Positions 1,893-27,125 of a stretch of DNA of 35,750 bases are shown here, piece after piece. The notes beneath the pieces are model-generated. The model worked only from the letters and a program-made list of their open reading frames with translations, had not been told where the DNA came from and did no database searches. Positions within the stretch are counted from its first letter, which is position 1; each line of letters opens with the position of its first letter. Both the position numbers and the translations under genes were made by a program. Source of the DNA: a virus (taxonomy: Duplodnaviria > Heunggongvirae > Uroviricota > Caudoviricetes); IMG/VR virus record IMGVR_UViG_2698536335_000014, positions 1 to 35,750 of that record. One strand, written 5' to 3'.

Positions 1893-4800
1893 GCGTCGTA
1901 TCCCCCCTGATCGCTGTAGTTACTCCTGGCTTTTGCCTTCAGCCTGCGTTCACGTTCATCAAGCTGGCGGGCCACCTCCCGCGCAATATCCTGCGCACTT
2001 TGTCCTGGCTGTGTCTGGATGATGATCTGCGTCGGTGCTTCAATCCGGTAAATGGGCGGCACAGTAGCTGCACGACTCACCATCGCTTCACCGCCTTTTG
2101 CGGGAAGCGCCAAAGGATGCAACGGTGGAAGCTCTGCTGGCGCGGCAGCAACACCCATCATTCCGGCGACAACGGCAGCCAGTGCAGCTGTATTTCTCCG
2201 GCTGGTCACGTTTGCCGGGCCGTTAACAATTTCCGGCCCGTTTTCACCGACGATGCCAAACTGCCCGCGCGGGATATAGCCGCCGCTGTCATACATCCCC
2301 GCAAAGCCATATCCCCATGACGGAAAATCACCCGATGGCATCATCACTTTACCGTCTGCATTCACCGTCGCAGGTTGCTGACGCGTCACGCTTTCCGGCA
2401 GTTTCGCCTTTGCAGCCTCTTTACTGACAATGCCGAGTTTCTCCAGCAACCAGGAAACGCCGGATTTCAGGGAGTCCAGCGGATGCATGACCATATTCAG
2501 CCCTTCTGCCAGTGCCTCCCCGAATCGTCGCCCCATTGCCGCTGCGCTCTGCAGTTCGGCAGAGGTCGACTTAACGGGCGTCAGCAGATCAGTAAACCAG
2601 CCCCACAGCGCCTGCACTTTGTCGCCAATCCACTGGAACACGGGCTTAAGCGGTTCGAACGCTGCACTGATGGGACCTGCCGCCGCTTTGAATCCTTCCA
2701 CCACGCCACCGAGAAATGCGGTGATGGGTTGCCAGTATTTCCAGACAACCAGCGCCACGCCCGCCAGTGCAGTAACCACAAGACCTATCGGACTGAGCAG
2801 AGCACCTAACAGACCAGATATGGCATACAGGGCAACGCGCAGCATCGCCAGTGGACCAGATGCCAGTACTCGCAGCACCGTGCCTGCGGCGGCCAGTCCA
2901 CCGCGCAGTGCCGCCAGAGGATTCATAAACATCACAGCAACAGCACGTAAACCGGATAATCCAGACCGCAAAAGTGCAACCGGCGCACCTGCTACAGTTT
3001 TCAGGACATTTCCCGTCAGTGATGCCGTGCGGCGCAAAGACGACAACGGCGCAGTAAGTAAACCTGCGGCGTTGCCCGATGAAGCAAGCCCGCGTCGCAG
3101 CAGTGCCAGTGGCGCGCCAGCCAGCCAGGACAACGCGCTGCTGGTTCGAGTTACTGCTGTCGTAACGGAAGATAACGTTTTGATACCCAACACAGAGAAT
3201 CCCAGACGGATCACTGCCAGCGGCCCCAGCACTGCAGCCAGCGCCACCGCTAAGGTGCCGAGGCCGACGGTAACCGCAGCCACAACAGCCGATGCTTTCA
3301 TCAGTGTGCCTGTCAGTTCCGGGTTAGCTTCCACCCAGCGACGCAACGCCCCCGTGACGCTTTTCACCGTGTACAGAATATCCATCAGCGGCTGGCGCAG
3401 CGTTTCGCCCAGGCTGCTGAAGGTGTTCTGCGCTCCGGTTTTGACCAGCAACCACTGCGCAGAAAGTGAATCCTTGTTAATGTCGGATTCTTTCTGCATG
3501 GAGCCGAGCGCATCATTGCCCGCTGTCAGTTTTAACTGACGCTGCAGTTCCGGCAGGTTGTTTGCCAGTTTCGCCGCGTCATCGCCAAACTCTTTACCAA
3601 ACAACATAGTCATGGCAGACAGGCGCTTGTCCTGCGGCAGCGCGTTTACCTTCTCCAGCACGCGCTGGATGGTTCCCATCGCATCCTTCGTCATCTGCTT
3701 TTCAATCACTTCAGGATTGAGTTTCAGCAGATTCATCCCTTCAAAGAAACTCTTGCTTTGCATGGTGGCAATGGACAATTCACGCACCATCGCGTTTGCT
3801 GCACTGGCTGCAACCTCTGGCGCAGCGCCCAGTGTCAGGAAGGTGGAACCCAGCGCCGCCGCTTTACGATAATCCAGACGGTCAGCCACACCGCCCAGAC
3901 GTTGCATCACATCAATGATGTCTGCCCCTTTCGACATGGCGTTATCATCCAGATAGTTCAGCGCATCACCGAGCTGTTCAATATTGCGGGTGGGGATTTT
4001 GTAGAGCTGGGCGATTTTCCCCAGACTTTCTGACAGTTCATCCGCTGGCAGCTCAAAGGCTGTTGCCGCCTTTGCTGCCGTACTGGCGAAGGCCAGCAGG
4101 TCACGTTTCTGATCTTCCCAGCTGTCGTCAGGGTTTGCGACGTTCATGCGCGCACCACCTTCAACCAGTGCAGCGAAGTCCACCGCACCGTTTTCCATTG
4201 GCAACTGTTCGCTGGCAGCCTTGATGGCATCCTGCATTTCATAAAAACGTGCAGTGCGGTTGCCATTATCGTCACGCAGACCATTGACCTGCTTTGCCAC
4301 ACCTTTCATGGCATCTTCCATGCTGGTATAGCTTTTTACTGCCGCCATCACTGGCGCACCCATTGCCAGCCCTGCAGCCGTGGTGGTGGCTCCGGCACCT
4401 GCAATACGATCACGCACCTCCAGCGAACGGGCATAACTGGCACGCGCTGCATTCATCCTGCGCTGAGCTTCCCCCAGTCGCTTCAGCCGCGCCTCCTGTT
4501 TCGAAAGTTCCTGGTTATAACGTGATGTTTCACGGGCTAAACGGGCAGTTGCTCCCGCATCGTCTTTCGCAGAAATTCCCGCCCGGTACAGTTCAGCACG
4601 CACAAGCGCCGTCTGCTGCTGCAGCTTTTTCTGGCGTTCTTCCAGGCGCTGAACAGCCAGCCGTTGACGGCCCAGAGCAACAACCTGACGTTGCGAAGGC
4701 GGCCCCATCGCTCCCAGTTCCTGACTGAGCAAATTTGCACGCTGGCGGGCATAGTTCAGCCTGTCGCCTAATTTCTGATTTTCTGCCTGCAGCTTTCGGA

Positions 4801-4966
4801 AGCTGTCCAGACTGCTCCCGGCCTGATCAAGCTGCTTTATTGCATCGCGGGATTTTTTGACAGCAGCAGCCAGTTCTCTTGAACTGGCCTGTGCAGATCG
4901 AAATGGGCGGGTGAGCTTGTCAACCGCATTAAGAATGACCTGCAGACGCAGGTTGTTATCACTCAT
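1889..4966 (-). CDS. T: tail tape measure protein gpT
   Basis: 1025-aa ORF with coiled-coil N-terminus and Ala/Gly/Leu-rich hydrophobic segments; directly downstream of E/E'. Confidence 0.9.
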   Translation of the reverse strand: MSDNNLRLQVILNAVDKLTRPFRSAQASSRELAAAVKKSRDAIKQLDQAGSSLDSFRKLQAENQKLGDRLNYARQRANLLSQELGAMGPPSQRQVVALGRQRLAVQRLEERQKKLQQQTALVRAELYRAGISAKDDAGATARLARETSRYNQELSKQEARLKRLGEAQRRMNAARASYARSLEVRDRIAGAGATTTAAGLAMGAPVMAAVKSYTSMEDAMKGVAKQVNGLRDDNGNRTARFYEMQDAIKAASEQLPMENGAVDFAALVEGGARMNVANPDDSWEDQKRDLLAFASTAAKAATAFELPADELSESLGKIAQLYKIPTRNIEQLGDALNYLDDNAMSKGADIIDVMQRLGGVADRLDYRKAAALGSTFLTLGAAPEVAASAANAMVRELSIATMQSKSFFEGMNLLKLNPEVIEKQMTKDAMGTIQRVLEKVNALPQDKRLSAMTMLFGKEFGDDAAKLANNLPELQRQLKLTAGNDALGSMQKESDINKDSLSAQWLLVKTGAQNTFSSLGETLRQPLMDILYTVKSVTGALRRWVEANPELTGTLMKASAVVAAVTVGLGTLAVALAAVLGPLAVIRLGFSVLGIKTLSSVTTAVTRTSSALSWLAGAPLALLRRGLASSGNAAGLLTAPLSSLRRTASLTGNVLKTVAGAPVALLRSGLSGLRAVAVMFMNPLAALRGGLAAAGTVLRVLASGPLAMLRVALYAISGLLGALLSPIGLVVTALAGVALVVWKYWQPITAFLGGVVEGFKAAAGPISAAFEPLKPVFQWIGDKVQALWGWFTDLLTPVKSTSAELQSAAAMGRRFGEALAEGLNMVMHPLDSLKSGVSWLLEKLGIVSKEAAKAKLPESVTRQQPATVNADGKVMMPSGDFPSWGYGFAGMYDSGGYIPRGQFGIVGENGPEIVNGPANVTSRRNTAALAAVVAGMMGVAAAPAELPPLHPLALPAKGGEAMVSRAATVPPIYRIEAPTQIIIQTQPGQSAQDIAREVARQLDERERRLKAKARSNYSDQGGYDA

Positions 4967-5395
4967 CGTTGGCCCCGCTTCTCTGAATCGCTTTATACCG
5001 CCATTCCAGCACTTCGGTCAGCGGCATAACGTCAGTAACGGATGGCGGCCAGTGAAAAATGGTGGCGATATCTGCCACCAGATCGTCAACCGTCAGGCTG
5101 TCGGTAAACCGGCAAGCACCGACTTCTTCAACAAAAAAGTGACAACCTCAACCGACATGGCAGTGAGATCTGCCGGGTCCATCTCTGCAATTTCCTGTGC
5201 AGTCAGTGCCGGACTGGAGATGCGGGGGATCACGGTCATCATCGCGTTTACATCCATATCCATAATGGCCTGCAGGCGTGTACCGCGCAGCGCACCGGAC
5301 TGCGGTTTACGCAGCACAATTTCGGTGATTTCTGTTTTACCGCGCTTGATGGGGGTATCCAGTTGAATGGTCTTTTCAGTCTGCTTATCGCTCAT
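4959..5395 (-). CDS. gpE+E' -1 programmed frameshift product (tail assembly chaperone)
   Basis: After a -1 slip at the TTTTTTG heptamer (minus strand, plus coords 5133-5139) the frame stays open to a TGA at 4959-4961, overlapping the T start codon, as in P2 E/E' and lambda G/GT. Confidence 0.6.
5093..5395 (-). CDS. E: tail assembly chaperone gpE
   Basis: 100-aa ORF upstream of T; contains slippery heptamer T-TTT-TTG in frame. Confidence 0.85.
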   Translation of the reverse strand: MSDKQTEKTIQLDTPIKRGKTEITEIVLRKPQSGALRGTRLQAIMDMDVNAMMTVIPRISSPALTAQEIAEMDPADLTAMSVEVVTFLLKKSVLAGLPTA

Positions 5396-5449
5396 TTTGC
5401 TGTCCTGTCAATTGGGTTCTGGCGCGGTATCCCGCGCCGTTCAGATATA

Positions 5450-5965
5450 TCAGAGGCCGAGGGCGTTGCGGTGCGCTTCCATCAGGTCCACACCGTCCAC
5501 AATTTCCACCATGTTGATAAGGTCCACTTCATAGAGCACCTCACCATTGATGGTCAGCTTCGCGTAGCTGTTGGTACTGGTCACTTTGGTGGTGTTGCTT
5601 TCGCCCGTCTTCCACTCGCCGGAATCCACTTCTTTGTGACGTCCACGCACGACAAGCTCCACGGCCTGCACTTCCCCGGTATCGTCACGCTGAATAGAGC
5701 CGGTAAAGCGCAGCTGGATGCCATCCACCGTGGCTTTACCCATCTGTTTAAACAGCAGCAATTCAGTACCACCAATGGAAAATTCTGTGTCCAGCGCACT
5801 GTCATCAAGCCCCAGGTCCACATCCACCGCACCCGGCATTCCGCCGCCGCGATACTTCTCATATTTGCGGGTAAATTTCGGCAGCGTCAGCGACTCAACG
5901 ATCCCCTGCCAGTTGTTCCCGTCGTTAAACAGGTTCAGGTGTTTTAATTTGCGTGGTAAAGCCAT
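5450..5965 (-). CDS. FII: tail tube protein gpFII
   Basis: 171-aa ORF, ATG start, P2 FII-like, downstream of FI. Confidence 0.9.
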   Translation of the reverse strand: MALPRKLKHLNLFNDGNNWQGIVESLTLPKFTRKYEKYRGGGMPGAVDVDLGLDDSALDTEFSIGGTELLLFKQMGKATVDGIQLRFTGSIQRDDTGEVQAVELVVRGRHKEVDSGEWKTGESNTTKVTSTNSYAKLTINGEVLYEVDLINMVEIVDGVDLMEAHRNALGL

Positions 5966-5974
5966 GTTGTCCCC

Positions 5975-7147
5975 TTACGCGCTGACCTGGCTGGCGAAAT
6001 TCACCAGGTACTGATCGGTGATGCGCTGACGCAGCATCAGGTTTTCAAGTGGCGGCACTGGCGTGTAGTCGTAGTCGATGGTGAGTTTTCCGGCTTTCAG
6101 CGTGTCTTTGTCGTTCACCGACTCATCCAGCCAGCAATCACCACCAATGAGATAGCCCTGACTGACCAGGCTGCGCATTTTGGCGCGGATACCTTCGATA
6201 ATGTCGCGGGCCAGCGACGGGTTAAGCGGTTTATCCACCGCCCACATGTGTGCTTCTGCCATCGTGTCCATCAGCACCTGCGCCGTGCGGGTGTAGTTTT
6301 CGAAGGCAAAGAGCGGGTCATCACTCAGGCAGCGGGAACCCCAGAAGCGGAAACCGTCTTTACGCACAAGCGTGGTGACGTCGTTCTGGTTCAGCAGACC
6401 TGCATCGGTTGCCGGGTCCTGCAGATCCCAGAACACATCTGCAGAAATTCCGGTGACACCGTTCACGCCCACGTTGGACAGGCTTTTGTGCCATCCGGTC
6501 TGCTCGTCAATTTTGGCGCGCAGACCAAGCGCACGGGCGGTGGTATATGCCGTTGCTTCGGCATTCAGCACCGTGTCCCAGCCAGTAAAGTCAGGCCAGA
6601 TCAGCATCCCTTCGCGCTGGCTGAAGTTTTCGCGGTAAGTGATCGCCTCCTGCACTGTCTTGCAGCCATACGCTGACAGGTAAGCAAATCCACGCAGGCT
6701 TTGCGCCACGCTTAGCAACTCAGTAGCTACCGCCTTGGTGTCGTGGCCTGGCACGCCGAGAATGCGCGGTTTAACGCCGAGCTGTGACTGGGCAGATAAC
6801 AGGGCTTTCATACCTGTTTTTTTACCTTCAGCAGTCACTGCGCCGATGATATTGGTCGTGGTTTCGTCTTCCGTTTCACCCTGCGGCACACGCACAACAA
6901 TGGTCACGGGTTTTGCCTGGTCAGCGATGGCATCCAGCGAACGGGCCAGAGTACCTGACTCACCCGCTTTACCGCTGGCAGTCAGCACATCAGTGATCAG
7001 CACGGGTTTATTAAGAGGAAACATTTTTGCATCGGCATCATCGCCCGTGCAGACCATACCCACGATGGCGGTGCTCACCGTGGTAATGGATCGAGTGCCT
7101 TCGTTGACTTCAACAACGCGCACCCCGTGGTGGTAATCCTGAGCCAT
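5975..7147 (-). CDS. FI: contractile tail sheath protein gpFI
   Basis: 390-aa ORF, ATG start, P2 FI-like. Confidence 0.9.
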
Positions 7148-7223
7148 AGTGGCGAACCTCCTGATTGGATTAGGCTTCGCCCTATGTTGAAGTGATTGTG
7201 CCTGACAAACAGCTAAGCGCAGT

Positions 7224-7241
7224 TGTACCGTTATTCACACA
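7224..7241 (-). promoter_or_regulatory. candidate Ogr-dependent late promoter element upstream of FI (TGT-N12-ACA)
   Basis: TGTACCGTTATTCACACA centred about 85 bp upstream of the FI ATG; near-identical to the element upstream of O (TGTACCGACAACCACACA). Confidence 0.5.
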
Positions 7242-7289
7242 AAATGACGGTATTTGTCTGCTTTCAGGGATAATCAAAATAAAGCTGAT

Positions 7290-7862
7290 TCAGGGAGATT
7301 TATTGCTCTTATTTGCCGGAAATTTTCGATAAATGGTAGAAACGCCTACATCAAAAATCAGTGCAATACGCTGTCTTGATTCTCCGGCCTCGAGTAAACG
7401 CCCAATCTGTGCCCACTGTTCGCTGGTCAACTTAGGACGGCGTCCACCTACTCTGCCCTTAGCACGAGCTGCAGCCAGCCCCGCCCTGGTACGTTCAACT
7501 ATCAGTTCGCGTTCCATTTCAGCCAGGGCACCCATGACATGAAAAAAGAAACGGCCCATTGGGGTGCTGGTATCAATACTGTCAGTCAGGCTTCGGAAAT
7601 TCACGCCACGCTGGCGCAGCTCTTCTATCAGCGTAACAAGATGCCGCATACTGCGCCCCAGTCTGTCCAGCTTCCAGACAACCAGCGTGTCTCCTGCCGA
7701 TAGTGTCCTGAGCAGCTTTTTCAGCCCCGGTCTGTCGGACTTGGTGCCACTGATTTTATCCTCAAAAATCCGCTCACATCCCGCACAGTTCAGTGCATTG
7801 CGTTGCAAATCGGTGTTCTGGTCATTTGTTGACACGCGTACATAGCCAATAAGCATGATCAT
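7290..7862 (-). CDS. serine DNA invertase (Hin/Gin/Cin/Pin family), copy 1
   Basis: 190 aa; N-terminal resolvase catalytic domain (GYVRVSTNDQ with catalytic Ser) and C-terminal HTH; ATG start. Confidence 0.9.
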   Translation of the reverse strand: MIMLIGYVRVSTNDQNTDLQRNALNCAGCERIFEDKISGTKSDRPGLKKLLRTLSAGDTLVVWKLDRLGRSMRHLVTLIEELRQRGVNFRSLTDSIDTSTPMGRFFFHVMGALAEMERELIVERTRAGLAAARAKGRVGGRRPKLTSEQWAQIGRLLEAGESRQRIALIFDVGVSTIYRKFPANKSNKSP

Positions 7863-7911
7863 CCCCCTGAATAAAAACCGGAGATGATGCCAGTTAGCCG
7901 TTATCTCTGCA

Positions 7912-7937
7912 TTTTCATAAACGTTGGTTTGGGAGAA
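7912..7937. other. invertase crossover site 1 (hix/gix/cix-like)
   Basis: TTTTCATAAACGTTGGTTTGGGAGAA, about 50 bp upstream of the invertase start; inverted relative to sites 2 and 3; imperfect dyad of the TTCTCCTAAACCAAGG type. Confidence 0.6.
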
Positions 7938-8285
7938 GCGGCGAAAAGGGATGTGGGCACAGGAGAAAATCAGATACCGGATATGTCATCCTGGAAAAGA
8001 AATCCGAGTTCTAATCGCTGGAGAAAATTGCCTGATGGAACCATCATTCAAATGGGAATATCAGCATCAGGGCCATTAGGCTCACCTGTAAATATCACCC
8101 TGCCGATATCTTTCAGCAATACCAATTATTGTGTTGTTGCATCGTACGATAATGCACGGTCAGGTGTGTCAACAATGGTTAGTTTTGCAGCATTACCTGT
8201 TTCACCATCGCAATTTTCCCTGATGTCATCTGTGACTGAGCAAGGAATAAATCCTTTTGCTTACTGGATTGCTTTTGGAGATTGA
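7938..8285 (+). CDS. alternative tail-fibre C-terminal variable segment (Sv'-like), no start of its own
   Basis: Open frame runs through site 1 (..GLGE|AAKRD..) in the same phase as H at site 3 (..GLGE|GSALP..); it would fuse to the H constant part after inversion. Confidence 0.55.
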   Translation, partial: AAKRDVGTGENQIPDMSSWKRNPSSNRWRKLPDGTIIQMGISASGPLGSPVNITLPISFSNTNYCVVASYDNARSGVSTMVSFAALPVSPSQFSLMSSVTEQGINPFAYWIAFGD

Positions 8286-8288
8286 TAA

Positions 8289-8708
8289 ATGGACAGATAC
8301 TTCTATTCACAAAAAGAAAATGGTTTTTTTACCGATTTAAATAAAGCACCTTCAGATGCTGTTGAGATAACCACGGATGAATGGCTGTCACTACTGGATG
8401 GTCAGGATAATGGCATGAAAATAGTCAGCAATCAGGAGGGATATCCGGTTTTGACAGAGCAACCACCTTTATCAAAAGAAAACCTTATTGCATTGGCAGA
8501 GTTGAAAAAAGGAAAACTTATTAATGAAGCCAACGAGCACATGAACAGCAGGCAATGGCCTGGTAAAGCGGCTATTGGTCGTCTGAAAGGTGAGGAACTG
8601 GCGCAATATAATTTGTGGCTGGATTATCTGGACGCACTGGAACTGGTTGATACCTCCAGTGCTCCAGATATTGAATGGCCTACGCCTCCGGCAGTTCAGG
8701 CCAGATGA
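8289..8708 (+). CDS. tail fibre assembly protein (U'/G-like), partner of the alternative fibre segment
   Basis: 139 aa; C-terminal motif (DTSSAPDIEWPTPP) shared with the convergent chaperone ORF at 8680-9282; ATG start 4 nt after the Sv' stop. Confidence 0.75.
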   Translation: MDRYFYSQKENGFFTDLNKAPSDAVEITTDEWLSLLDGQDNGMKIVSNQEGYPVLTEQPPLSKENLIALAELKKGKLINEANEHMNSRQWPGKAAIGRLKGEELAQYNLWLDYLDALELVDTSSAPDIEWPTPPAVQAR

Positions 8709-9282
8709 CATCCGGCGCGGTGCTGGTATCTGTTGCCGTCACCGCGTCAATGTAATCCAGCACGGCGTTAAGTCTGGTTGTTTCTGCCTGCGTCAGTTTA
8801 CGTCCGGCCTGTAATTTCAGCTGAATCAGACTAATGGAAGCCATTGCTGCATCAATCAGTGACTGGCGCTGTGCTTCTGCCGCGTCTACTGCGGCACTAT
8901 GCTGTGCCTCAGTATCTGTCACCCATTTCTCACCATCCCATTTATCGTATGGCGTTAACGGGACGATAGTGGTTGTATTTTCAGGGTAATCACCCGGAGC
9001 TGTGATTTCTTTTGATTCTCCCGTTTCGGTGTTATAGACAACTTCACCGCGATGGTCTGGCACATATTCCCATGAGTTAAAATCTGCAGAACGGCAGATT
9101 GCATAACCAGCTTTATGTGTAACTGGTGCATCTAAACAAGAACATGCCGGGATACCGACGCCAACCGCAAGATATTCAGTTGATGTGGAAATATATTCCC
9201 GCGTTTCACCATCATAATTATAAATGGTAATGTCTCCCGCTTTTATGGCAATGAGTTCGTTATTTAATACGGCTTTATTCAT
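8680..9282 (-). CDS. G: tail fibre assembly protein (gpG/U-like), full length
   Basis: 200 aa; ATG overlaps the stop of the upstream variable segment (TGATG); 3' end converges on and overlaps U'. Confidence 0.8.
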   Translation of the reverse strand: MNKAVLNNELIAIKAGDITIYNYDGETREYISTSTEYLAVGVGIPACSCLDAPVTHKAGYAICRSADFNSWEYVPDHRGEVVYNTETGESKEITAPGDYPENTTTIVPLTPYDKWDGEKWVTDTEAQHSAAVDAAEAQRQSLIDAAMASISLIQLKLQAGRKLTQAETTRLNAVLDYIDAVTATDTSTAPDVIWPELPEA

Positions 9283-9779
9283 CAGGCAGCTCTCACGATA
9301 TAATTAAAGGCAATGTTACGAGGACGGTTTTCGTTTGCAGTTGGAACAATTCTTGAAGCATCAAGGCCAATCACTTTTGGGTAAACAGCGCCATCTGTTC
9401 TTTCAGTCACCATACTTCTGATTAAGGAGAAATAACTATTGTTCGTTGAGGGATTCAAAGGCACCACTGCCCCCTTAAACGAGCCTACTGATTCCCATAT
9501 TGAATAATTTTCGGTGTTTACAGTCTTGAACTCACCATAGATATTACGTATGGCATCGCCCTGAGCGGATAATATTGCCCTCCCCGTATCCATACCACGT
9601 CCGTCATCCCAGCCACGAATAAACTCACCACGTAAATCAGGCAATTTATTTGTCGGGTAAGCCTTTGCCAGTTCTGGGTATTCTTCAGCAGAAAAAGCTG
9701 CTCCGTTGCATTTTAGCCAGCCTGTTGGCGGAGTGGCTGAGGGCCACGGAACAGGTACGCCAACAGGCAATGCTGAGCC
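9282..9779 (-). CDS. tail-fibre C-terminal variable segment A, copy inside the invertible segment (no start of its own)
   Basis: Identical to the C-terminal 166 aa of H (10979-12538); bounded upstream by site 2. Confidence 0.6.
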   Translation of the reverse strand, partial: GSALPVGVPVPWPSATPPTGWLKCNGAAFSAEEYPELAKAYPTNKLPDLRGEFIRGWDDGRGMDTGRAILSAQGDAIRNIYGEFKTVNTENYSIWESVGSFKGAVVPLNPSTNNSYFSLIRSMVTERTDGAVYPKVIGLDASRIVPTANENRPRNIAFNYIVRAA

Positions 9780-9805
9780 TTCTCCTAAACCAACGTTTAT
9801 GAAAA
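9780..9805. other. invertase crossover site 2
   Basis: TTCTCCTAAACCAACGTTTATGAAAA; its reverse complement matches site 1 except for one base. Confidence 0.6.
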
Positions 9806-9854
9806 TGCAGAGATAACGGCTAACTGGCATCATCTCCGGTTTTTATTCAGGGGG

Positions 9855-10427
9855 ATGATCATGCTTATTGGCTATGTACGCGTGTCAACAAATGACCAGA
9901 ACACCGATTTGCAACGCAATGCACTGAACTGTGCGGGATGTGAGCGGATTTTTGAGGATAAAATCAGTGGCACCAAGTCCGACAGACCGGGGCTGAAAAA
10001 GCTGCTCAGGACACTATCGGCAGGAGACACGCTGGTTGTCTGGAAGCTGGACAGACTGGGGCGCAGTATGCGGCATCTTGTTACGCTGATAGAAGAGCTG
10101 CGCCAGCGTGGCGTGAATTTCCGAAGCCTGACTGACAGTATTGATACCAGCACCCCAATGGGCCGTTTCTTTTTTCATGTCATGGGTGCCCTGGCTGAAA
10201 TGGAACGCGAACTGATAGTTGAACGTACCAGGGCGGGGCTGGCTGCAGCTCGTGCTAAGGGCAGAGTAGGTGGACGCCGTCCTAAGTTGACCAGCGAACA
10301 GTGGGCACAGATTGGGCGTTTACTCGAGGCCGGAGAATCAAGACAGCGTATTGCACTGATTTTTGATGTAGGCGTTTCTACCATTTATCGAAAATTTCCG
10401 GCAAATAAGAGCAATAAATCTCCCTGA
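9855..10427 (+). CDS. serine DNA invertase, copy 2 (protein identical to copy 1)
   Basis: 190-aa product identical to the 7290-7862 ORF; lies in the inverted duplication. Confidence 0.85.
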   Translation: MIMLIGYVRVSTNDQNTDLQRNALNCAGCERIFEDKISGTKSDRPGLKKLLRTLSAGDTLVVWKLDRLGRSMRHLVTLIEELRQRGVNFRSLTDSIDTSTPMGRFFFHVMGALAEMERELIVERTRAGLAAARAKGRVGGRRPKLTSEQWAQIGRLLEAGESRQRIALIFDVGVSTIYRKFPANKSNKSP

Positions 10428-10569
10428 ATCAGCTTTATTTTGATTATCCCTGAAAGCAGACAAATACCGTCATTTTGTGTGAATAACGGTACAACTGCGC
10501 TTAGCTGTTTGTCAGGCACAATCACTTCAACATAGGGCGAAGCCTAATCCAATCAGGAGGTTCGCCACT

Positions 10570-10691
10570 ATGGCTCAGGATTACCACCACGGGGTGCGCG
10601 TTGTTGAAGTCAACGAAGGCACTCGATCCATTACCACGGTGAGCACCGCCATCGTGGGTATGGTCTGCACGGGCGATGATGCCGATGCAAA
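10570..10691 (+). pseudogene. duplicated 5' fragment of FI (first ~40 codons, [17 protein letters not shown]...), truncated
   Basis: Exact inverted copy of the FI start region; ends at a breakpoint at 10691/10692. Confidence 0.75.
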
Positions 10692-10979
10692 CGGAGCTGT
10701 GATTTCTTTTGATTCTCCCGTTTCGGTGTTATAGACAACTTCACCGCGATGGTCTGGCACATATTCCCATGAGTTAAAATCTGCAGAACGGCAGATTGCA
10801 TAACCAGCTTTATGTGTAACTGGTGCATCTAAACAAGAACATGCCGGGATACCGACGCCAACCGCAAGATATTCAGTTGATGTGGAAATATATTCCCGCG
10901 TTTCACCATCATAATTATAAATGGTAATGTCTCCCGCTTTTATGGCAATGAGTTCGTTATTTAATACGGCTTTATTCAT
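10581..10979 (-). pseudogene. chimeric ORF: tail fibre assembly protein N-terminal 96 codons fused to antisense of the FI fragment
   Basis: Protein matches U through ..ESKEITAP, then reads through the breakpoint into sequence antisense to FI. Confidence 0.7.
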
Positions 10980-11502
10980 CAGGCAGCTCTCACGATATAA
11001 TTAAAGGCAATGTTACGAGGACGGTTTTCGTTTGCAGTTGGAACAATTCTTGAAGCATCAAGGCCAATCACTTTTGGGTAAACAGCGCCATCTGTTCTTT
11101 CAGTCACCATACTTCTGATTAAGGAGAAATAACTATTGTTCGTTGAGGGATTCAAAGGCACCACTGCCCCCTTAAACGAGCCTACTGATTCCCATATTGA
11201 ATAATTTTCGGTGTTTACAGTCTTGAACTCACCATAGATATTACGTATGGCATCGCCCTGAGCGGATAATATTGCCCTCCCCGTATCCATACCACGTCCG
11301 TCATCCCAGCCACGAATAAACTCACCACGTAAATCAGGCAATTTATTTGTCGGGTAAGCCTTTGCCAGTTCTGGGTATTCTTCAGCAGAAAAAGCTGCTC
11401 CGTTGCATTTTAGCCAGCCTGTTGGCGGAGTGGCTGAGGGCCACGGAACAGGTACGCCAACAGGCAATGCTGAGCCTTCTCCTAAACCAAGGTATGCGAG
11501 AA
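10692..11502. repeat. direct repeat copy 2 (U 5' part + variable segment A of H + site 3 half)
   Basis: Duplicate of 8995-9805. Confidence 0.8.
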
Positions 11503-12538
11503 GACCAGCTACATCCTTTCCACTCAAATTAGTCAGCGTATTGTCCAGCGGTTGTTTACCTGCCAGTGCATTAAGCATTGTCGTGGCAAAGTTCGGGTCA
11601 TTCCCCAGCGCCGCCGCCAGTTCGTTCAGTGTATCCAGTGCCGCAGGTGCAGAACCCACCATTGCCGCAATCGCCGATTTCACAAAAGCCGTAGTGGCAA
11701 TCTGTGTATTGTTGACCGACTGCGCCGCCGTGGGGGCTGTTGGCGTTCCGGTGAGTGCCGGACTCAACAGCGGCGCTTTCAGTGCCAGCGCATTATTAAT
11801 GGTGGTACTGAATTTCGGATCATTGTTAATGGCTACGGCTATTTCTTTCAGCGTGTCCAGCGTGGCTGGCGCACCATTAATAATAGCCGTCAGTGCAGCC
11901 TGAACAAACTCGGTGGTCGCAATCTGCGTGGTGTTATTCCCTGCTGCTGGCGTTGGCGCTTTGGGTGTCCCGGTAAACGTCGGACTTTCTTTGGGTGCAT
12001 ACTGTGAATGCGGGTCCGGTGCGGCAAGATGTTTTGCCATCTGATCATCCGCGTACACCTTCAGCTCCAGTGCCTTGTCATCCACATACTTGCGGGTTGC
12101 CAGCACTACAGCAGGGTCGATTTTCAGGGTGATATTGTCCGTGCTGCTGGTAATCAGCACCATGCGCACGGTCTGAGTGCGCCCGCTACCTTCAGCCAGT
12201 TGCGGCTTATAGCTTTCCGGGCAGTTGCCCACGGCAATCAATGCCCCGGACTCATCAAACAAGCCCACTTCACGTATCCACCAACCGCCCTCGTTTTCAG
12301 GGATCACCTGTTCGGCAATAATCTGACTGCTGTTCTGCGGGTCGATATAGAGCATATTCAGCGCAGCCCGGCGTTTCTCATTTACCAGTGCAGTCTGCTT
12401 TGAGTCTGGCGTTGGCAATACTCCGCCGCCATCGCCGACCGCCATATGGGTAATTTTTAGCGGCACACCGAGCGCGGCGGCGCTGGCAAGTTTCGCCGCG
12501 CCAATATCCGTCAGCAGGGTATAAAATTTTGTGCTCAT
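10979..12538 (-). CDS. H: tail fibre protein gpH (constant N-terminal part fused to variable segment A)
   Basis: 519 aa; N-terminus MSTKFYTLLTDIGAAKLA..MAVGDGGG resembles P2 gpH as I recall it; crossover site 3 lies inside the ORF at the constant/variable junction. Confidence 0.9.
   Translation of the reverse strand: MSTKFYTLLTDIGAAKLASAAALGVPLKITHMAVGDGGGVLPTPDSKQTALVNEKRRAALNMLYIDPQNSSQIIAEQVIPENEGGWWIREVGLFDESGALIAVGNCPESYKPQLAEGSGRTQTVRMVLITSSTDNITLKIDPAVVLATRKYVDDKALELKVYADDQMAKHLAAPDPHSQYAPKESPTFTGTPKAPTPAAGNNTTQIATTEFVQAALTAIINGAPATLDTLKEIAVAINNDPKFSTTINNALALKAPLLSPALTGTPTAPTAAQSVNNTQIATTAFVKSAIAAMVGSAPAALDTLNELAAALGNDPNFATTMLNALAGKQPLDNTLTNLSGKDVAGLLAYLGLGEGSALPVGVPVPWPSATPPTGWLKCNGAAFSAEEYPELAKAYPTNKLPDLRGEFIRGWDDGRGMDTGRAILSAQGDAIRNIYGEFKTVNTENYSIWESVGSFKGAVVPLNPSTNNSYFSLIRSMVTERTDGAVYPKVIGLDASRIVPTANENRPRNIAFNYIVRAA
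11477..11502. other. invertase crossover site 3, inside H at the constant/variable boundary
   Basis: TTCTCCTAAACCAAGGTATGCGAGAA; left half identical to site 2 and in the same orientation. Confidence 0.6.
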
Positions 12539-13140
12539 GGATTCACTCTCATTGTGTCAATAACATGGACCGCCCCGCCTTCATGCGCGGTGCCGCCAGA
12601 AATAATTGTTTCGTTGATATACGGATAGATCGTGATTTCTTCGCCAAGATAGCTGGCGGCCCCCACCCAATGCGGACCGCTGGTCTGCAGATTGATGGAC
12701 ATGCCGATCATGTGACGGCTACATGGTTTGGCATCGCTTATCAGCCGCTCAAGTTCCAGATAGGTATCTTCAGTGATGCCCTGGTCCTGCACGCCGATAT
12801 CCAGGCGAAACGTGCCCGGTGTTTCTCCGGTCTGCCACCACTCAATAATGCGGATCAGGAATCCGAACGGTTCCACCACCCGCCGCACGGCACTGGTAGT
12901 TCCTTTATGCTGATGAATATAAAAAGCATCCTTCACTACCTGGCGTTTGACGCTTTCTGTCCAGCCCTCGTCCCAGCGATCCACAGAGAACGCCCAGGCG
13001 AGATAAGGCAGGAAGCTGACCGGACAGGTAGCCGGATTCCACAAGTCACGCAGCGGCACCTGCAGATCAGAAATCCCGCTACAGGTTTGCGCCAGTCGGC
13101 GCTCCAGTGAAGTTGAACCCGGTGGCAGCAGACTATTCAT
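12535..13140 (-). CDS. I: baseplate protein gpI
   Basis: 201 aa, ATG start, overlaps H start; P2 gpI-like. Confidence 0.85.
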   Translation of the reverse strand: MNSLLPPGSTSLERRLAQTCSGISDLQVPLRDLWNPATCPVSFLPYLAWAFSVDRWDEGWTESVKRQVVKDAFYIHQHKGTTSAVRRVVEPFGFLIRIIEWWQTGETPGTFRLDIGVQDQGITEDTYLELERLISDAKPCSRHMIGMSINLQTSGPHWVGAASYLGEEITIYPYINETIISGGTAHEGGAVHVIDTMRVNP

Positions 13141-14041
13141 CCGTTCCTCCGTTGGTTACGCTCCACTGCGTACATGATGCCGCCTGTGTTTTGTTCAGGA
13201 CCACATCCGCCAGCGGAGAAGCCAGTTCCACACGTTGAACACCCTCAACATGCAGAGCAGCAAAGATGGCGCTACGGCGAATATCCCGACCAAGCCTCGT
13301 CTGGCTGGCAATGTACTTCTGCAGACTGGCTTTTGCCGCTGCCATTACCGGCTCTGCTTCCGGTCCCGGATAGAGAAAAATGGTGGCTTCCACGCGATAC
13401 GGGATGATTTCTGCGCTGCGAACCGTAAGACGGTCAGCCACCGGGCGGACGTTCTCACTGTTCAGAGCTTTTTCCACCACGTCCAGCAGGTCTTTTTCTG
13501 CAGTTCCATCGCCTTCGCGGCTAAGGACAGTCAGCACCACCTCTGCAGGTGCCGGGCTGGTTGCACTGGCATCCGCTACCCGACCGTCGGCGCTTCGGGC
13601 ATGAAATTCATAAGCTGCAGTTGGCCCCGCAACAGAAAGCCCTTCAAAGGCTGCAGGCACACGCAGGCGTAACGCTTCATCGCTTTCCATCACAGCTGCA
13701 ACGGGCGGCACAGCATCATTATCAGCAGGCGTCACCGTCAGGCGTGTCACGTTGTAGTTGGCAGCGAGCTGGTCAAGATCGCCGCCCATCGCGTAAGCCA
13801 CCATCACCGCCTGCGCGGCTTCGTTAATGCGCTGGCGCAGAAGCAACTCACGGTAAGCGTTCTCCTGCAACAATTTAGTGACGGGTTCAGATTCCAGTTC
13901 CAGCGTGCGGATCACGGCTTCCTGCTCATCTTTCGGATGAAGTGCAACAAATTGGGCCTTGCGTTCGGCAAGCAGCGTCTCAAAGTCCGGCACATCCACA
14001 ATCTGCGGTGCAGGCAACTGCGAAAGGTCAATCACTGCCAT
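13133..14041 (-). CDS. J: baseplate protein gpJ
   Basis: Start placed at the ATG at 14041 (MAVIDLSQLPAP..), which fits the P2 gpJ N-terminus as I recall it; the track ORF extends to an upstream non-ATG codon. Confidence 0.85.
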   Translation of the reverse strand: MAVIDLSQLPAPQIVDVPDFETLLAERKAQFVALHPKDEQEAVIRTLELESEPVTKLLQENAYRELLLRQRINEAAQAVMVAYAMGGDLDQLAANYNVTRLTVTPADNDAVPPVAAVMESDEALRLRVPAAFEGLSVAGPTAAYEFHARSADGRVADASATSPAPAEVVLTVLSREGDGTAEKDLLDVVEKALNSENVRPVADRLTVRSAEIIPYRVEATIFLYPGPEAEPVMAAAKASLQKYIASQTRLGRDIRRSAIFAALHVEGVQRVELASPLADVVLNKTQAASCTQWSVTNGGTDE

Positions 14042-14387
14042 TCTCTGCTCCTGTTGATACGGAAAGGGACACAGGCACACCGTTATTCCGCCGCCCGTTC
14101 AGCGCCACCACCATTGAACCGTCAAAATTGCTGTTAATGGTGATGGAATCCAGCGTCAGCCGTGGCTCCCAGCGACTCAGCGCCACATACACTGCCGACA
14201 TGACCTGCAGGCGTAACGCCGGATTTTGTGGCTGGTCTATCAGTGCCGACAGCAGGGAACCATATTCACGGCGAGCAATGCGGCTACCCTGCGGCGTCAG
14301 CAGAATGTCCCGCACCGACTGGCGCAGATGGTCAATATCAGTAATGGCTTTGCCGCTGGTATTGTTCATCCCACTATAAAGCGTCAT
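14028..14387 (-). CDS. W: baseplate protein gpW
   Basis: 119 aa, ATG start, between V and J. Confidence 0.8.
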   Translation of the reverse strand: MTLYSGMNNTSGKAITDIDHLRQSVRDILLTPQGSRIARREYGSLLSALIDQPQNPALRLQVMSAVYVALSRWEPRLTLDSITINSNFDGSMVVALNGRRNNGVPVSLSVSTGAENGSD

Positions 14388-14962
14388 ACCGGGCCTCCGG
14401 TTGTATCGCCGCCTTTCAGGACGCCAGTATGCTGATGCGCATCAACCACGATCCCGTTAGAACTCATCGCTCCGCCGCCCTGGGTAACTCCACCATTGAT
14501 CACCACTTCGCTGTTAATGCGCGTGCGGTCAGCCTCCAGTACAAACTCACTGGTTTTCAGGGTGATGTTGTCAGCGGCCTCAATGACCATTGATTTGATG
14601 CCCCTGACATACCAGCGCCCGGTGGCGGGTTCGTATTCAAACCAGCCACCGTCAGGATGTTCTGTCACGCAGGCGTCCGCCGACGTCGACGGTGGTGCGA
14701 ACTGATTCGAATAGACAGCGGGCAGCGCAAAGGCGGTCTCCAGATTGCCGCCCAGACTCAGCAGCACCACCTGCTCACCTTCCGATGGTTTCCACCATGT
14801 GCGGGCATTACCCGCGCGCAGCGTCAGCCAGTTAATCCAGTTGGTTTCAAGGTCGCCCGTTTTCACCCGACAAAGCCAGTTTTCCCGGTCCACTTCGGTG
14901 ACTACCCCAGTGCGGATCAGGTTGGTGATAAGGCGCATGATTTCGGTTAATTGTGCGTTCAT
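14384..14962 (-). CDS. V: baseplate spike/hub protein gpV
   Basis: 192 aa, ATG start; N-terminus resembles P2 gpV. Confidence 0.85.
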   Translation of the reverse strand: MNAQLTEIMRLITNLIRTGVVTEVDRENWLCRVKTGDLETNWINWLTLRAGNARTWWKPSEGEQVVLLSLGGNLETAFALPAVYSNQFAPPSTSADACVTEHPDGGWFEYEPATGRWYVRGIKSMVIEAADNITLKTSEFVLEADRTRINSEVVINGGVTQGGGAMSSNGIVVDAHQHTGVLKGGDTTGGPV

Positions 14963-15008
14963 AGGGAAAGGTTGCCATCAGGGGAAGAAAGGCGGCAGTG
15001 CTGCAACT

Positions 15009-15026
15009 TGTATCAGTGCTGATACA
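15009..15026 (-). promoter_or_regulatory. candidate Ogr-dependent late promoter element upstream of V (TGT-N12-ACA)
   Basis: TGTATCAGTGCTGATACA, a perfect dyad, between the S stop and the V start. Confidence 0.4.
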
Positions 15027-15030
15027 AAGA

Positions 15031-15477
15031 TCACCCCGCCAGCCATTGCAGAATCATGTCGCGGGTCATTGCCTCAACATCATCATTTACACCCAGCAGG
15101 CGGCGCTCTGCGTAACGGACCTCCGGTCCTTTGCGACTGACGCGATCACGCAGGCCGTAATGGTGAACACGGGCAATACGCTGCACCTTGCCTTCAAACT
15201 GTACGCTGGCAGAGTCGGCGCTGGCGGCAGTTTTCAGGTATTTTGTGGTGCGCAGCTTTGCAAACATCTGACGTTTGATGCGCCCCTTCTTGCTGCGTAC
15301 TGTTACCCTGCGCGGTTCATAACTGCTGCCATCAGGATTGCGCTGCATCCTGATATTCAGCTGCTGTGTCCGGCGCAGTTCCTGCGCCAGCTGGCGCATC
15401 ATGCGGCTTCTGGCGGCTGGTTCCAGATTCGCCAGCAAGGCACTCAACCAGTCGTCCACCTTCTGCAATTCAGCCAC
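15031..15477 (-). CDS. S: tail completion protein gpS
   Basis: 148 aa; listed start is GTG at 15477 overlapping the R stop; no nearby ATG, so the start is uncertain. Confidence 0.8.
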   Translation of the reverse strand: MAELQKVDDWLSALLANLEPAARSRMMRQLAQELRRTQQLNIRMQRNPDGSSYEPRRVTVRSKKGRIKRQMFAKLRTTKYLKTAASADSASVQFEGKVQRIARVHHYGLRDRVSRKGPEVRYAERRLLGVNDDVEAMTRDMILQWLAG

Positions 15478-15901
15478 GTTTCACCGTCCACATTTCTTCA
15501 GGTTCATCAGGTTCCGCTACCGCTTCAACGTTCGACACACTGCCGTCAGTGCTGACCAGCACACGCTCTGTCAGTTGCAGGTTAAGGCTGATATCACAGA
15601 CATCGTTGCGCAGAATATCCACCTCAAAGGTGAATAACTTTTCCCGTAACTCCGGGTTATTGATGGCATCGGGCTGGTTATCCCGCAACCACAGCAAAAC
15701 CGGGGCCATCAGCAGATTCTGGTCGCCGCTGAAATCCTCAATCACTGCGTTCAGGGTGTAACGGTACTCCCATGACATGGAGCTGGCCCCCGTGGCAACC
15801 AGCGAACCGTTATCCACAAACAGATGCAGTTTGTCCGGGTTATTGCGGACATAAGGCACCGCTTTATTGAGGGCGTGGCGCAGGGATTGTGGTTTGTTCA
15901 C
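15470..15901 (-). CDS. R: tail completion protein gpR
   Basis: Track ORF begins at TTG 15922; likelier start is the GTG at 15901 preceded by SD aggag, giving an N-terminus aligned with P2 gpR. Confidence 0.8.
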   Translation of the reverse strand: MNKPQSLRHALNKAVPYVRNNPDKLHLFVDNGSLVATGASSMSWEYRYTLNAVIEDFSGDQNLLMAPVLLWLRDNQPDAINNPELREKLFTFEVDILRNDVCDISLNLQLTERVLVSTDGSVSNVEAVAEPDEPEEMWTVKRG

Positions 15902-23818: not shown

Positions 23819-23840
23819 CCTATAGATCAGGGTCTATAGG
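23819..23840. terminator. candidate bidirectional hairpin terminator between convergent Q and the cargo operon
   Basis: cctataga-tcaggg-tctatagg: 8-bp perfect stem, 6-nt loop, followed by TTTAT; overlaps the stop codon of the 215-aa ORF. Confidence 0.35.
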
Positions 23841-24467
23841 TTTATGATGTAATGATACAGGATAATGCACAACTTGATAATCCAGCTTACTTACAGTATG
23901 AAGGTGCTGACTATAAAAAACCAAGGGGTTTTTTGGGCAATCAATAATATTAACGGATTTACAAGCATGAATCCTAGGTGCATTCTTTGATAAGAATGTT
24001 TTCCATGAATCCATCATGTCAGAACAGGAAGCGTTTTTCGTATAAATAATTAAACCACCCGAAGAGCTATTTATAGTCCCAGTACTATACCGCTCGGTAA
24101 GTTGTGCATAACCTTTAAAAAGATATAAATATGAAGAATGTTTTTTAGCTTCCCCATGCCAGATATAATCTGCAAGGGTAATAGATATATCACAATGTCC
24201 TCTCTGGTTCTTCTCGTGACTGGCTTCGAGCCCCAGATATCTATTTTCAATATACGAAAGCAAATATAGAGTTAACTGATCTTCAGAGAGATCAAAGTTA
24301 ATTTTATTGCCATTTTGCTCTAATTTACTTACAGCGTAATCCAGCTCCTTTCGAACAAGACTGTTGAAATTAGAATAGGACTCCAACGCAAATTGAATCC
24401 TTTGAATGGCAAAGTGAACCTTCTGCAAATGAAAGTTTTTCTCCAAATCATCCAGACTTGTAAGCAT
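23820..24467 (-). CDS. hypothetical protein, third gene of the AT-rich cargo operon
   Basis: 215 aa, ATG start overlapping the upstream stop (translational coupling); no motif I recognise. Confidence 0.7.
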   Translation of the reverse strand: MLTSLDDLEKNFHLQKVHFAIQRIQFALESYSNFNSLVRKELDYAVSKLEQNGNKINFDLSEDQLTLYLLSYIENRYLGLEASHEKNQRGHCDISITLADYIWHGEAKKHSSYLYLFKGYAQLTERYSTGTINSSSGGLIIYTKNASCSDMMDSWKTFLSKNAPRIHACKSVNIIDCPKNPLVFYSQHLHTVSKLDYQVVHYPVSLHHKPIDPDL

Positions 24468-24895
24468 TAGTACGCCCCTTCCTTTGTGAAATTAATAACT
24501 GTAAAGAAAGGAAATACATATTTTTTGTAGTCTGGCACAATCTCACCAGTATATGGATGCTCTAAACCTTGATTATCTTCAGCATCAATCACGTCCGCAA
24601 TGCTTATATTAACTGGATCGAAACCATCGTCTATAAATTGATAGTTTAATTTCAAAAAATTAACTTTTGGATTACACAAAACTTGGATAGCCAAGTAAAT
24701 ATCATGCTCATCCACTTTAGCGCCCCCCTTATTCGAAATCGCTATATCAAATAAAAGGTTATAACTAATGAATATATTAGGAGAGCGAGCTGCTAACTTT
24801 GCAAGTTTTTCATAAAACATGCACGCCAAAACTCCCACTTCTGGGCGTTCTGAGCATATGTCTTGTATAGTCTTTGCCAAGTTAGCATCCTTCAT
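24467..24895 (-). CDS. hypothetical protein, second gene of the AT-rich cargo operon
   Basis: 142 aa, ATG start 12 bp downstream of the first gene; no motif I recognise. Confidence 0.7.
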   Translation of the reverse strand: MKDANLAKTIQDICSERPEVGVLACMFYEKLAKLAARSPNIFISYNLLFDIAISNKGGAKVDEHDIYLAIQVLCNPKVNFLKLNYQFIDDGFDPVNISIADVIDAEDNQGLEHPYTGEIVPDYKKYVFPFFTVINFTKEGAY

Positions 24896-24907
24896 TTTTG
24901 TCTCCAG

Positions 24908-26014
24908 CTATAGTATCAGCTTCGTAAGCGTTTCGAAATCATCACGAGAGATACATTTACTAAGTATAGCAAAATTCACTGGTGAACCAGAGCTTCCACT
25001 AAGGTACCGTCTTAGCGTTCCTGGTATAGTAAGTTCTACATTGTCCGCTAACTGTAGTAAAGGATTTGTTCGCTCAACCCTGATGCCTATCCTATAAAGT
25101 CCGATATTGCCTACGGCTTTAATACCTTCTTGATTGAAGATATCTTGTCTCAAATCTTTAGTGGAGTCAGTTTTCCTTTCCTTATGTGTTGTCCCTTCAG
25201 GGGTAAGGAATGAAAGCTCAAAAACTTTATAATTAAGAGTTGAGTATGGTTTTTGATCTTGCTTAAAGATTGGTTCAATCAAGGGAAAGAAATCTCTTTC
25301 TTTTGATGCAAACTCAGCACCTATAATATTATAAAGTTCTCTTACTACAGTACTCTTTGCAAACAAGACGCTCTCACCTATTGTATTAATACCTGCATCT
25401 ATCAAAATAGAGATAGTAGAGTTGGTCTTATTAAAAATGCACACATCAAAACATTGATGCTTTTCTTTTTTAGTAGCAATGATCTCTTCGTAGCCACTGT
25501 ACTGCGGTAAACTTTTAGGCGAAATCCGCTCTCTAATTTTTTGCTCTCTAACGGAACTAAATAGAGCTAAAGCCTGATTATTGCTCTCAGAATAATGAAC
25601 TAAGTTTATTTTATTCTTCCCCGACGCATTAATTTCCTGCTCAGAAAGGATTACATCTGAGGCGACAGAAGGCTGTTCAGATAAATCCCACTTTAATTTC
25701 ATAGCCTTTGTTAGCGAGGAAATTATTTGGTTGTCTACTGATAAACAAAAAAAAGCTTTATCACCGTAGACCAATTGACCAAATATTAAATTATTTACAG
25801 ACCTTATGATATCATTAAATTTATTTAAATTCTTTTCCTTTAATTCTGTTAATTCTTCCAGTATTTTTCCATGAGTAGCATCTCTACCTTTACCACGAGC
25901 TAATCCAAGAGCTGAAATAACAGGTTTTGCCACGTTCCATGGAAATCTCGTGATTAGTGTCAAAATGGATTTCATTTCTGCTTCACTAAGTACTACTGGG
26001 ACATTTCCTGTCAT
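24908..26014 (-). CDS. hypothetical protein, first gene of the AT-rich cargo operon
   Basis: Track ORF starts at GTG 26041; first ATG at 26014 (MTGNVPV..); about 370 aa; no Walker A, HEPN or other motif I recognise. Confidence 0.7.
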   Translation of the reverse strand: MTGNVPVVLSEAEMKSILTLITRFPWNVAKPVISALGLARGKGRDATHGKILEELTELKEKNLNKFNDIIRSVNNLIFGQLVYGDKAFFCLSVDNQIISSLTKAMKLKWDLSEQPSVASDVILSEQEINASGKNKINLVHYSESNNQALALFSSVREQKIRERISPKSLPQYSGYEEIIATKKEKHQCFDVCIFNKTNSTISILIDAGINTIGESVLFAKSTVVRELYNIIGAEFASKERDFFPLIEPIFKQDQKPYSTLNYKVFELSFLTPEGTTHKERKTDSTKDLRQDIFNQEGIKAVGNIGLYRIGIRVERTNPLLQLADNVELTIPGTLRRYLSGSSGSPVNFAILSKCISRDDFETLTKLIL

Positions 26015-26157
26015 CTTAATTACCTGTTGAAATTGCAACACAAGGTCGTCTTCGGGAGATCAATGGGAGTATTCCAATAACTTACCCAGGTATAGGAGTG
26101 CTTTCAAGTCTAAGACTATCTTCTGTCTAACAGCGCATGTTTTCATCTAAGCGCGCG

Positions 26158-27102: not shown

Positions 27103-27125
27103 TCCTTAATGGTTGCAGAAGAAAG

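Follow-up and report, generated by a model that had tools for sequence, protein, structure and literature searches.

The tail-fibre region of the window (the whole stretch analysed, 35,750 nt) appears to carry two invertase genes and three crossover sites, a layout which, judged by comparison of assemblies, is almost certainly an artefact of scaffolding a mixed-orientation culture; the duplication itself is not genuine. The real locus is an ordinary tail-fibre inversion switch of the Pin/Gin/Cin type in a P2/186-like prophage, with one serine invertase, two inverted 26-bp sites, one beside the invertase and one inside the fibre gene H, and a flippable segment of 1.87 kb made up of two convergent cassettes, each pairing a fibre C-terminus with a dedicated assembly chaperone. 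Both orientations of this segment would have been present side by side in the source culture. The pipeline would then have retained the alternative junction (Sv, hybrid site, invertase, 5′ end of the sheath gene) and placed it in the main scaffold, by a single-N join, beside the normal piece running from H through the site and Sv to the chaperone. The outcome would be an apparent extra 1697 nt, which would account for the second invertase gene, the third site and the repetition of the fibre module.

Repeats, crossover sites and genes of the locus

The initial annotation had described an invertible core flanked by identical invertase genes in inverted orientation, each with a crossover site, and this description proved correct: the arms of a 913-nt inverted repeat (7026-7938 and 9779-10691) each contain the same invertase gene and differ by one mismatch (G at 7931 versus 9786), located within the crossover site. 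This inverted repeat lies in N-free sequence, an observation that counts against an artefact, and it follows that part of the duplication was written by the pipeline as continuous sequence. The third, directly oriented site that had been reported inside H is also there; however, the repeat at that position is not the short site only, as it extends over 802 nt (copies at 8995-9796 and 10692-11493), again with one mismatch (9794/11491) within the crossover site. Since the mismatches of both repeats fall within the site, the homologies are free of mismatches as far as the AA/TT dinucleotide at its centre. Each of the three sites of the window (s1 to s3, Table 1) is intact, their AA/TT centres are compatible, and the half-site TTGGTTTRGGAGAA was counted 3 times where 0 occurrences were expected.

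Table 1. Features of the tail-fibre region, in window coordinates.
Feature	Position	Strand	Remarks
Tail sheath gene (P2 FI type)	5975-7147	-	Pfam Phage_sheath_1/1C, PHROG 23; annotated 'phage tail sheath protein' in L001
DNA invertase (serine recombinase), canonical place beside sheath gene	7290-7862	-	Pfam Resolvase + HTH_7; PHROG 125
Silent alternative fibre C-terminus Sv′ (gp53-like_C)	7884-8285	+	Pfam Gp53-like_C
Crossover site 1 (s1)	7912-7937	+	TTTTCATAAACG TT GGTTTGGGAGAA; invertase-proximal
Tail-fibre assembly chaperone, alternative cassette	8289-8708	+	Pfam Caudo_TAP, PHROG 188
Full-length tail-fibre assembly chaperone (200 aa, 'tfaE'-type), Collar-type cassette	8680-9282	-	Pfam Caudo_TAP, PHROG 105
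Collar-type variable fibre C-terminus Sv, first copy	9282-9779	-	Pfam Collar; identical to 10979-11476
Crossover site 2 (s2)	9780-9805		Hybrid: Sv half + invertase half
Flipped-orientation extension	9794-10690	+	Reverse complement of 7027-7923
Second invertase ORF	9855-10427	+	Identical to 7290-7862(-)
Scaffold gap	10691		'N' in CXZX01000009.1, 'A' in window
Second copy: chaperone 5′ 288 nt + Sv	10692-11490	-	Begins right after gap
Tail fibre gene H (519 aa)	10979-12538	-	Pfam Phage_tail_fib + Collar
Crossover site 3 (s3)	11477-11502		TTCTCCTAAACC AA GGTATGCGAGAA; normal fibre-side site, inside H

The invertase is a small serine recombinase with a Resolvase catalytic domain and a C-terminal HTH (Pfam Resolvase, 2.4e-53; HTH_7, 5.8e-16; PHROG 125 'DNA invertase', E 1.5e-101). 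The closest solved structure is 'DNA-invertase' 3uj3/4m6f (PDB 3uj3, E 7e-93), which we take to be Mu Gin. Sites s1 and s3 are inverted 26-bp sequences that conform to the dix consensus and share the same AA/TT centre. The constant part of H runs up to the site and is followed by Sv; as the site lies in the fibre gene, inversion exchanges the C-terminus in frame; both cassettes carry a Caudo_TAP chaperone. The flipped-orientation extension contains the second invertase, the region upstream of the sheath gene and the 5′ end of that gene (10570-10690), and stops at the gap; the piece that is duplicated includes the first 122 nt of the sheath gene (7026-7147). The second copy of the chaperone 5′ end and Sv creates a chimeric ORF of 132 aa (10581-10979). 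A look-up of the exact product found no public record with this ORF, and the same look-up gave no match for a cargo ORF of 377 aa. A promoter and terminator scan of the region added nothing.

Origin of the extra piece and the scaffold gap

Comparison with close prophages, which had been proposed as a check, showed one invertase and two sites in each of the 9 closest complete genomes. The nearest relatives have the canonical locus in either orientation, and each junction type was found at 100% identity in complete genomes. In one orientation the annotated fibre, the product of the same H gene as in the window, is 519 aa long (L001, L004), whereas in the other, where flipping has joined Sv′ to H, it is 469 aa (L002, L003). 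Two genomes from the same study and site, LD22-1 and LD26-1, have flanks that are 99.97% identical but differ in the orientation of the 1.88-kb segment. On these genome comparisons the switch is therefore active, and it is of a kind already known.

Removal of 9794-11490 (1697 nt) made the locus colinear with the canonical prophages (L001-L004), in agreement with the earlier proposal that the usual module would return if the DNA between sites 2 and 3 were deleted. These 1697 bases match the invertase-side junction of a flipped segment exactly, and the canonical locus together with this junction piece reproduces the window base for base. Site 2 is the exact recombinant expected at the invertase side of a flipped segment, and two genomes with the flipped form, LD26-1 and AST262, have its junction with 100% identity. 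Both junction types are thus present within this one assembly, and since the extra piece is the flipped junction, the culture that was sequenced would have held both orientations. The 'third site inside intact H' is the ordinary fibre-side site of the canonical switch.

The window is an integrated provirus whose ends coincide exactly with two stops, that of ogr (base 1) and that of the integrase (base 35750), and it sits inside a bacterial scaffold of 137 kb. Contig CXZX01000009.1 of GCA_001277675.1 corresponds base for base to window positions 3282-10690 and 10692-15833; the sole difference in 12,552 bases is at 10691, which is 'N' in the contig and 'A' in the window. Because the public contig has N there, 10691|10692 is a scaffold join: a single-N gap and not sequence. 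It is the only non-canonical junction in the window and shows no microhomology. The junction was absent from all 5,426 complete E. coli genomes searched, closed long-read genomes included, and its 30-mer was not found in the genome, viral or metagenome contigs searched. That base 10691 of the window itself reads A, not N, counts against an artefact.

The same pattern was seen in at least five unrelated IMG/VR scaffolds (L015, L023, L066, L084 and L086), in which pieces of the switch are duplicated at 100% identity and all abut a single N. A precedent comes from the prophage fibre switch of EC958, for which about 50% of the reads had the other orientation and gave rise to spurious contigs, and the genome paper (Forde et al. 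2014, PMC4134206) predicts artefactual duplications when alternate contigs are merged. As for the program step responsible, it was probably edge extension or gap closing from both sides of the gap. Gap closers add bases one by one to both gap edges, and closure needs the extensions to overlap (PMC3446322). The gap-size rule of GapFiller alone would not permit extensions of ~800-900 nt, which counts against an artefact.

Alternative explanations and wider meaning

The initial annotation had left open whether the layout was an assembly artefact from a mixed-orientation population or a real rearrangement, namely an inverted-duplication intermediate. Both the single-N join and the exact match between extra piece and flipped junction uphold the former and speak against a genuine three-site, two-invertase system. 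Such a system could in principle have arisen by a 1697-bp head-to-tail tandem duplication followed by inversion: the tandem unit (sheath 5′ end, invertase, site, Sv, chaperone 5′ end) would arise in the flipped orientation, and the invertase would then invert the DNA between the site of the first copy and the site in H. This path gives the window base for base, and the intact sites with their compatible centres would allow it; that two plausible biological steps formally reach the same structure counts against an artefact. However, a real junction would have been spanned by reads and assembled, whereas this one is N in the public record, is missing from the complete genomes and contig collections searched, and has counterparts at N in five unrelated scaffolds. 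We dropped this exact formal route since the junction is N, and regard it as very unlikely. An equally slim chance is given to the idea that the isolate truly carries the 1.7-kb duplication and that the N marks an assembly failure at a true junction. Were that so, the module would cycle through four interconvertible arrangements, and in two of them the fibre gene and its full-length chaperone would lie apart.

Other origins were considered as well. The invertase could have recombined at cryptic (quasi) sites, one in the sheath gene (~7026) and one in the chaperone gene (~8995), to yield a genuine inverted duplication, and the contig ends of the independent scaffold L023, which fall within 13-31 nt of both positions, looked like hot spots. 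These ends are N joins, however, and the parental sequence at 7026 and 8995 is unlike the Din consensus and has no common central dinucleotide, so this candidate was rejected and has a negligible probability. Related loci have no mosaic boundary at 7026, which also argues against the cryptic sites. For repeat or mosaic boundaries as an origin of the two end points, the relatives give a divided picture, with a shared boundary at 8961 and none at 7026. Scarcely any weight can be given either to an untrimmed end overlap of a circular phage contig that was rotated afterwards: such an overlap typically shows up as a tandem duplication, and a tandem-duplication form exists here, but the explanation is contradicted by provirus ends that coincide with gene ends within the 137-kb bacterial scaffold.

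The main value of the scaffolding artefact is as a caution. Invertible phage tail-fibre segments that flip frequently in culture produce artefactual duplications in scaffolded draft genomes, with additional invertase genes, additional sites and truncated or chimeric ORFs, and these pass into provirus and viral-contig collections. Once the gap character is lost, as in the window, the artefact resembles a novel multi-site recombination system. The artefact itself also shows that this Pin-type switch underwent inversion in the culture used for sequencing.

Comparison with known inversion systems

The locus closely resembles Pin and the P segment of E. coli e14, with a serine invertase of about 190 aa and two convergent cassettes of fibre C-terminus and chaperone, the latter annotated tfaE in relatives. 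The reverse complement of site 1 (TTCTCCCAAACC AA CGTTTATGAAAA) is identical to e14 pixR in the Din-family site table (PMC3241671), and site 3 shares the left half of pixL bar one base. Unlike the defective e14, the P2/186-like prophage that carries the switch here is intact, with fibre gene H on one side of the switch and the sheath gene on the other, and the apparent second invertase and third site are artefacts. As in the Gin/G segment of Mu and the Cin/C segment of P1, one site is at the boundary between the constant and variable parts of the fibre and the other beside the invertase, and inversion exchanges the fibre C-terminus plus its chaperone, although the phage backbones differ. At the central dinucleotide the sites have AA, like cix, pix and hix, whereas gix of Mu Gin has GA (PMC3241671). 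By analogy with Hin/Gin, as described in PMC3798978, a Fis-dependent recombinational enhancer would be expected in the 5′ part of the invertase gene.

In EC958, too, mixed orientations within one culture led to extra contigs, and the Phi2 sites (..ACCTT GGTTTAGGAGAA and ..AAACGTT GGTTTGGGGGAA) resemble those described here (PMC4134206); there the alternate contigs remained separate, whereas here one was merged into the scaffold. The likeness to p15B Min and R64-type shufflons, with more than two sites and four possible arrangements, exists on paper only: in those systems distinct cassettes lie between the sites, whereas the third site here is owed solely to a duplicate of 100% identity, which stops at the N of a scaffold gap.

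Repeats and crossover sites in the switch region

The window is a P2/186-like provirus, trimmed exactly to two stop codons: that of the ogr gene at base 1 and that of the integrase gene at base 35750. The two identical, inverted invertase genes and three crossover sites described in the initial annotation are visible in the window sequence and were confirmed as a property of it. Both invertase ORFs lie within a 913-nt inverted repeat, and the half-site common to the three sites occurred three times, against zero expected. A second, direct repeat of 802 nt takes in the entire variable fibre C-terminus and nt 1-288 of the chaperone gene. Each repeat has a single mismatch, and since this falls within a crossover site, neither homology is broken before the central AA/TT dinucleotide. 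When related loci were aligned, a sharply bounded conserved block emerged over the 3' portion of the chaperone gene (window 8646-8961), with 29 alignments starting at 8646 and 31 ending at 8961; this mosaic boundary divides the conserved C-terminal domain of the chaperone from its cassette-specific N-terminal part.

Features of the switch region, with rows 1-11 in gene order along the minus strand
Row	Feature	Position (strand)	Size	Remarks
1	Fibre gene H	10979-12538(-)	519 aa	Phage_tail_fib + Collar
2	Chimeric ORF		132 aa	96 aa of chaperone, then read-through
3	Sheath gene 5' end			antisense
4	Invertase	9855-10427(+)	190 aa	antisense; identical to row 10
5	Site 2	9780-9805	26 bp
6	Collar-type C-terminus			promoterless
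7	Chaperone	8680-9282(-)	200 aa	full length
8	Alternative chaperone + gp53-like C-terminus		139 aa + 133 aa	convergent
9	Site 1	7912-7937	26 bp
10	Invertase	7290-7862(-)	190 aa
11	Sheath gene	5975-7147(-)
	Site 3	11477-11502	26 bp	inside H
	Inverted repeat	7026-7938 / 9779-10691	913 nt
	Direct repeat	8995-9796 / 10692-11493	802 nt

The junction at 10691|10692 and the origin of the extra DNA

The only junction without a counterpart in the canonical locus was 10691|10692, where the 5' end of the sheath gene, in antisense, abuts nt 288 of the chaperone gene, with no microhomology at the join. Look-up of the 183-aa ORF at 9282-9833 identified contig CXZX01000009.1 (137 kb; NCBI GCA_001277675.1), which has the same two-invertase gene order and agrees at every base with window 3282-10690 and 10692-15833; the sole difference is an N at position 10691, where the window has A. 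Because the public record has N at exactly that position, 10691|10692 is a single-N scaffold join, that is, two sequence ends put next to each other without continuity supported by reads. The junction was found in 0 of 5,426 complete E. coli genomes, and was not found in species-representative genome contigs, IMG/VR or JGI metagenome contigs; look-up of the chimeric ORF placed it on no record.

Comparison with closely related prophages, suggested in the initial annotation, showed that one invertase and two sites, in a region of 4,204 nt versus 5,901 in the window, are present in the nine complete E. coli genomes nearest to it (99.1-99.7 % identity). Removal of 9794-11490 (1697 nt) makes the window colinear with all nine, bearing out the prediction that deletion between sites 2 and 3 would restore the canonical arrangement. 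Site 2 is the exact hybrid site expected on the invertase side after one inversion, and all of 8995-10691 is what the flipped orientation has as its invertase-side junction. The N at the junction and the flipped-junction identity of the extra piece support the alternative raised in the initial annotation, that the two-invertase, three-site layout arose artefactually in the assembly of a population with mixed orientations; for a new system with three sites and two invertases there is no support, its novel junction being a single N in the public assembly.

A simulation in which the canonical locus was flipped, 1697 nt from 7026 duplicated, and the product flipped between the outer sites gave the window base for base, and a real tandem duplication followed by inversion had therefore been a serious candidate. 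However, it needs the assembler to have failed at precisely the one true novel junction, and we consider it very improbable. Recombination at a cryptic site, which is without sequence support, is less credible still. An untrimmed circular overlap, of equally slight probability, was ruled out by the chromosomal context, as the provirus ends at the ogr and integrase stops and lies in a 137-kb contig.

As to how the artefact might arise, about half of the reads over an EC958 prophage fibre switch were in the alternative orientation (Forde et al., PMC4134206), and gap-closing programs extend both gap edges base by base, closing only if the extensions overlap (PMC3446322). Extensions running into different orientations would, we infer, leave a residual single N between them. 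Among about 115 IMG/VR loci retrieved around related invertases, five scaffolds (L015, L023, L066, L084 and L086) had 100 %-identical duplicated switch pieces with 2-3 invertase copies (up to three in L066), and every odd junction was a single N. These scaffolds come from isolate genomes and belong to the same artefact class as the window, the main value of which is as a warning for draft-genome and provirus collections.

Possible hybrid inversion systems, and cargo genes of the prophage and its relatives

Locus L125 (CP044257.1, a complete 4.76-Mb chromosome; positions 7914-7939 and 8896-8921) has the fibre cassette pair of the window without the fibre constant part. The pair is bordered by the phage invertase/sheath side and by a second resolvase, whose neighbours are a gene for flagellin and one of Flag1_repress (fljA) type. 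The junction site, TTCTCCCAAACC AA GGTTTTTGATAA, is a hybrid of the phage half-site and the right half of hixL, with an intact hixR after it and no N. The arrangement looks like a real, large-scale rearrangement of the chromosome through cross-recombination of a prophage fibre switch with the hin-fljBA switch. Two N-free IMG/VR contigs (L080 3562-6558 and L025 3441-6564) have a fibre cassette with a different invertase gene on each side, the two being in inverted orientation and about 83-86 % alike, and no fibre constant part. The second invertase adjoins a GIY-YIG protein and lies beside an EcoRII-C/cytosine methylase pair in L080, with an AraC regulator instead in L025. At these loci two inversion systems may genuinely have recombined.

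A three-gene cassette (23820-26041(-); 377/368, 142 and 215 aa) lies in the window between the portal gene and the replication region; neither Pfam nor PADLOC gave a match for it. Entries for the 215-aa protein occur in 463 index blocks of the public assembly collection, from which 25 contigs carrying it were examined, and in 6/6 places among the matches listed it occupied this P2-type variable hotspot. At 26458-27764(-) a HAD-family hydrolase (214 aa) adjoins a NUDIX hydrolase (212 aa), which has a weak match (E 7e-10) to PDC-S07, a candidate defence model of PADLOC. Close relatives (L122 11547-12552, L130 19574-20648, L133 19450-20648, L132 1-1241, L131/L133 1-1472) carry differing cargo at the same two positions, one following the tail-completion genes and the other next to the repressor, that is, at putative defence-type hotspots; examples are OLD-like AAA_15/AAA_21/TOPRIM, SIR2_2, KAP NTPase and SNIPE/T5orf172.

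The canonical switch and its relation to known systems

What the locus really contains is a Din-family inversion switch of canonical form, a kind already known. Its invertase has Resolvase and HTH_7 domains, and the closest solved structure is 'DNA-invertase' 3uj3. The switch is active in nature: complete genomes contain each of the two junction types at 100 % identity, and LD22-1 and LD26-1, two isolates from the same study with 99.97 %-identical flanks, differ by a flip of the segment. Both junction types are present in this one assembly and therefore the sequenced culture itself was mixed.

In the Hin and Gin systems a Fis-bound enhancer helps the invertase to pair two inverted sites, and the DNA is cut at the central dinucleotide, rotated and religated; by analogy, the invertase here would act on its two inverted sites in this way. 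Inversion flips 1.87 kb, so that the Collar-type end of H (its last ~166 residues), along with the 200-aa chaperone, is exchanged for the gp53-like C-terminus with the 139-aa chaperone. The two orientations give fibres of 519 aa and 469 aa. Site 3 matches the Din-family consensus and shares its AA centre with site 1, which is identical to pixR of e14 (PMC3241671).
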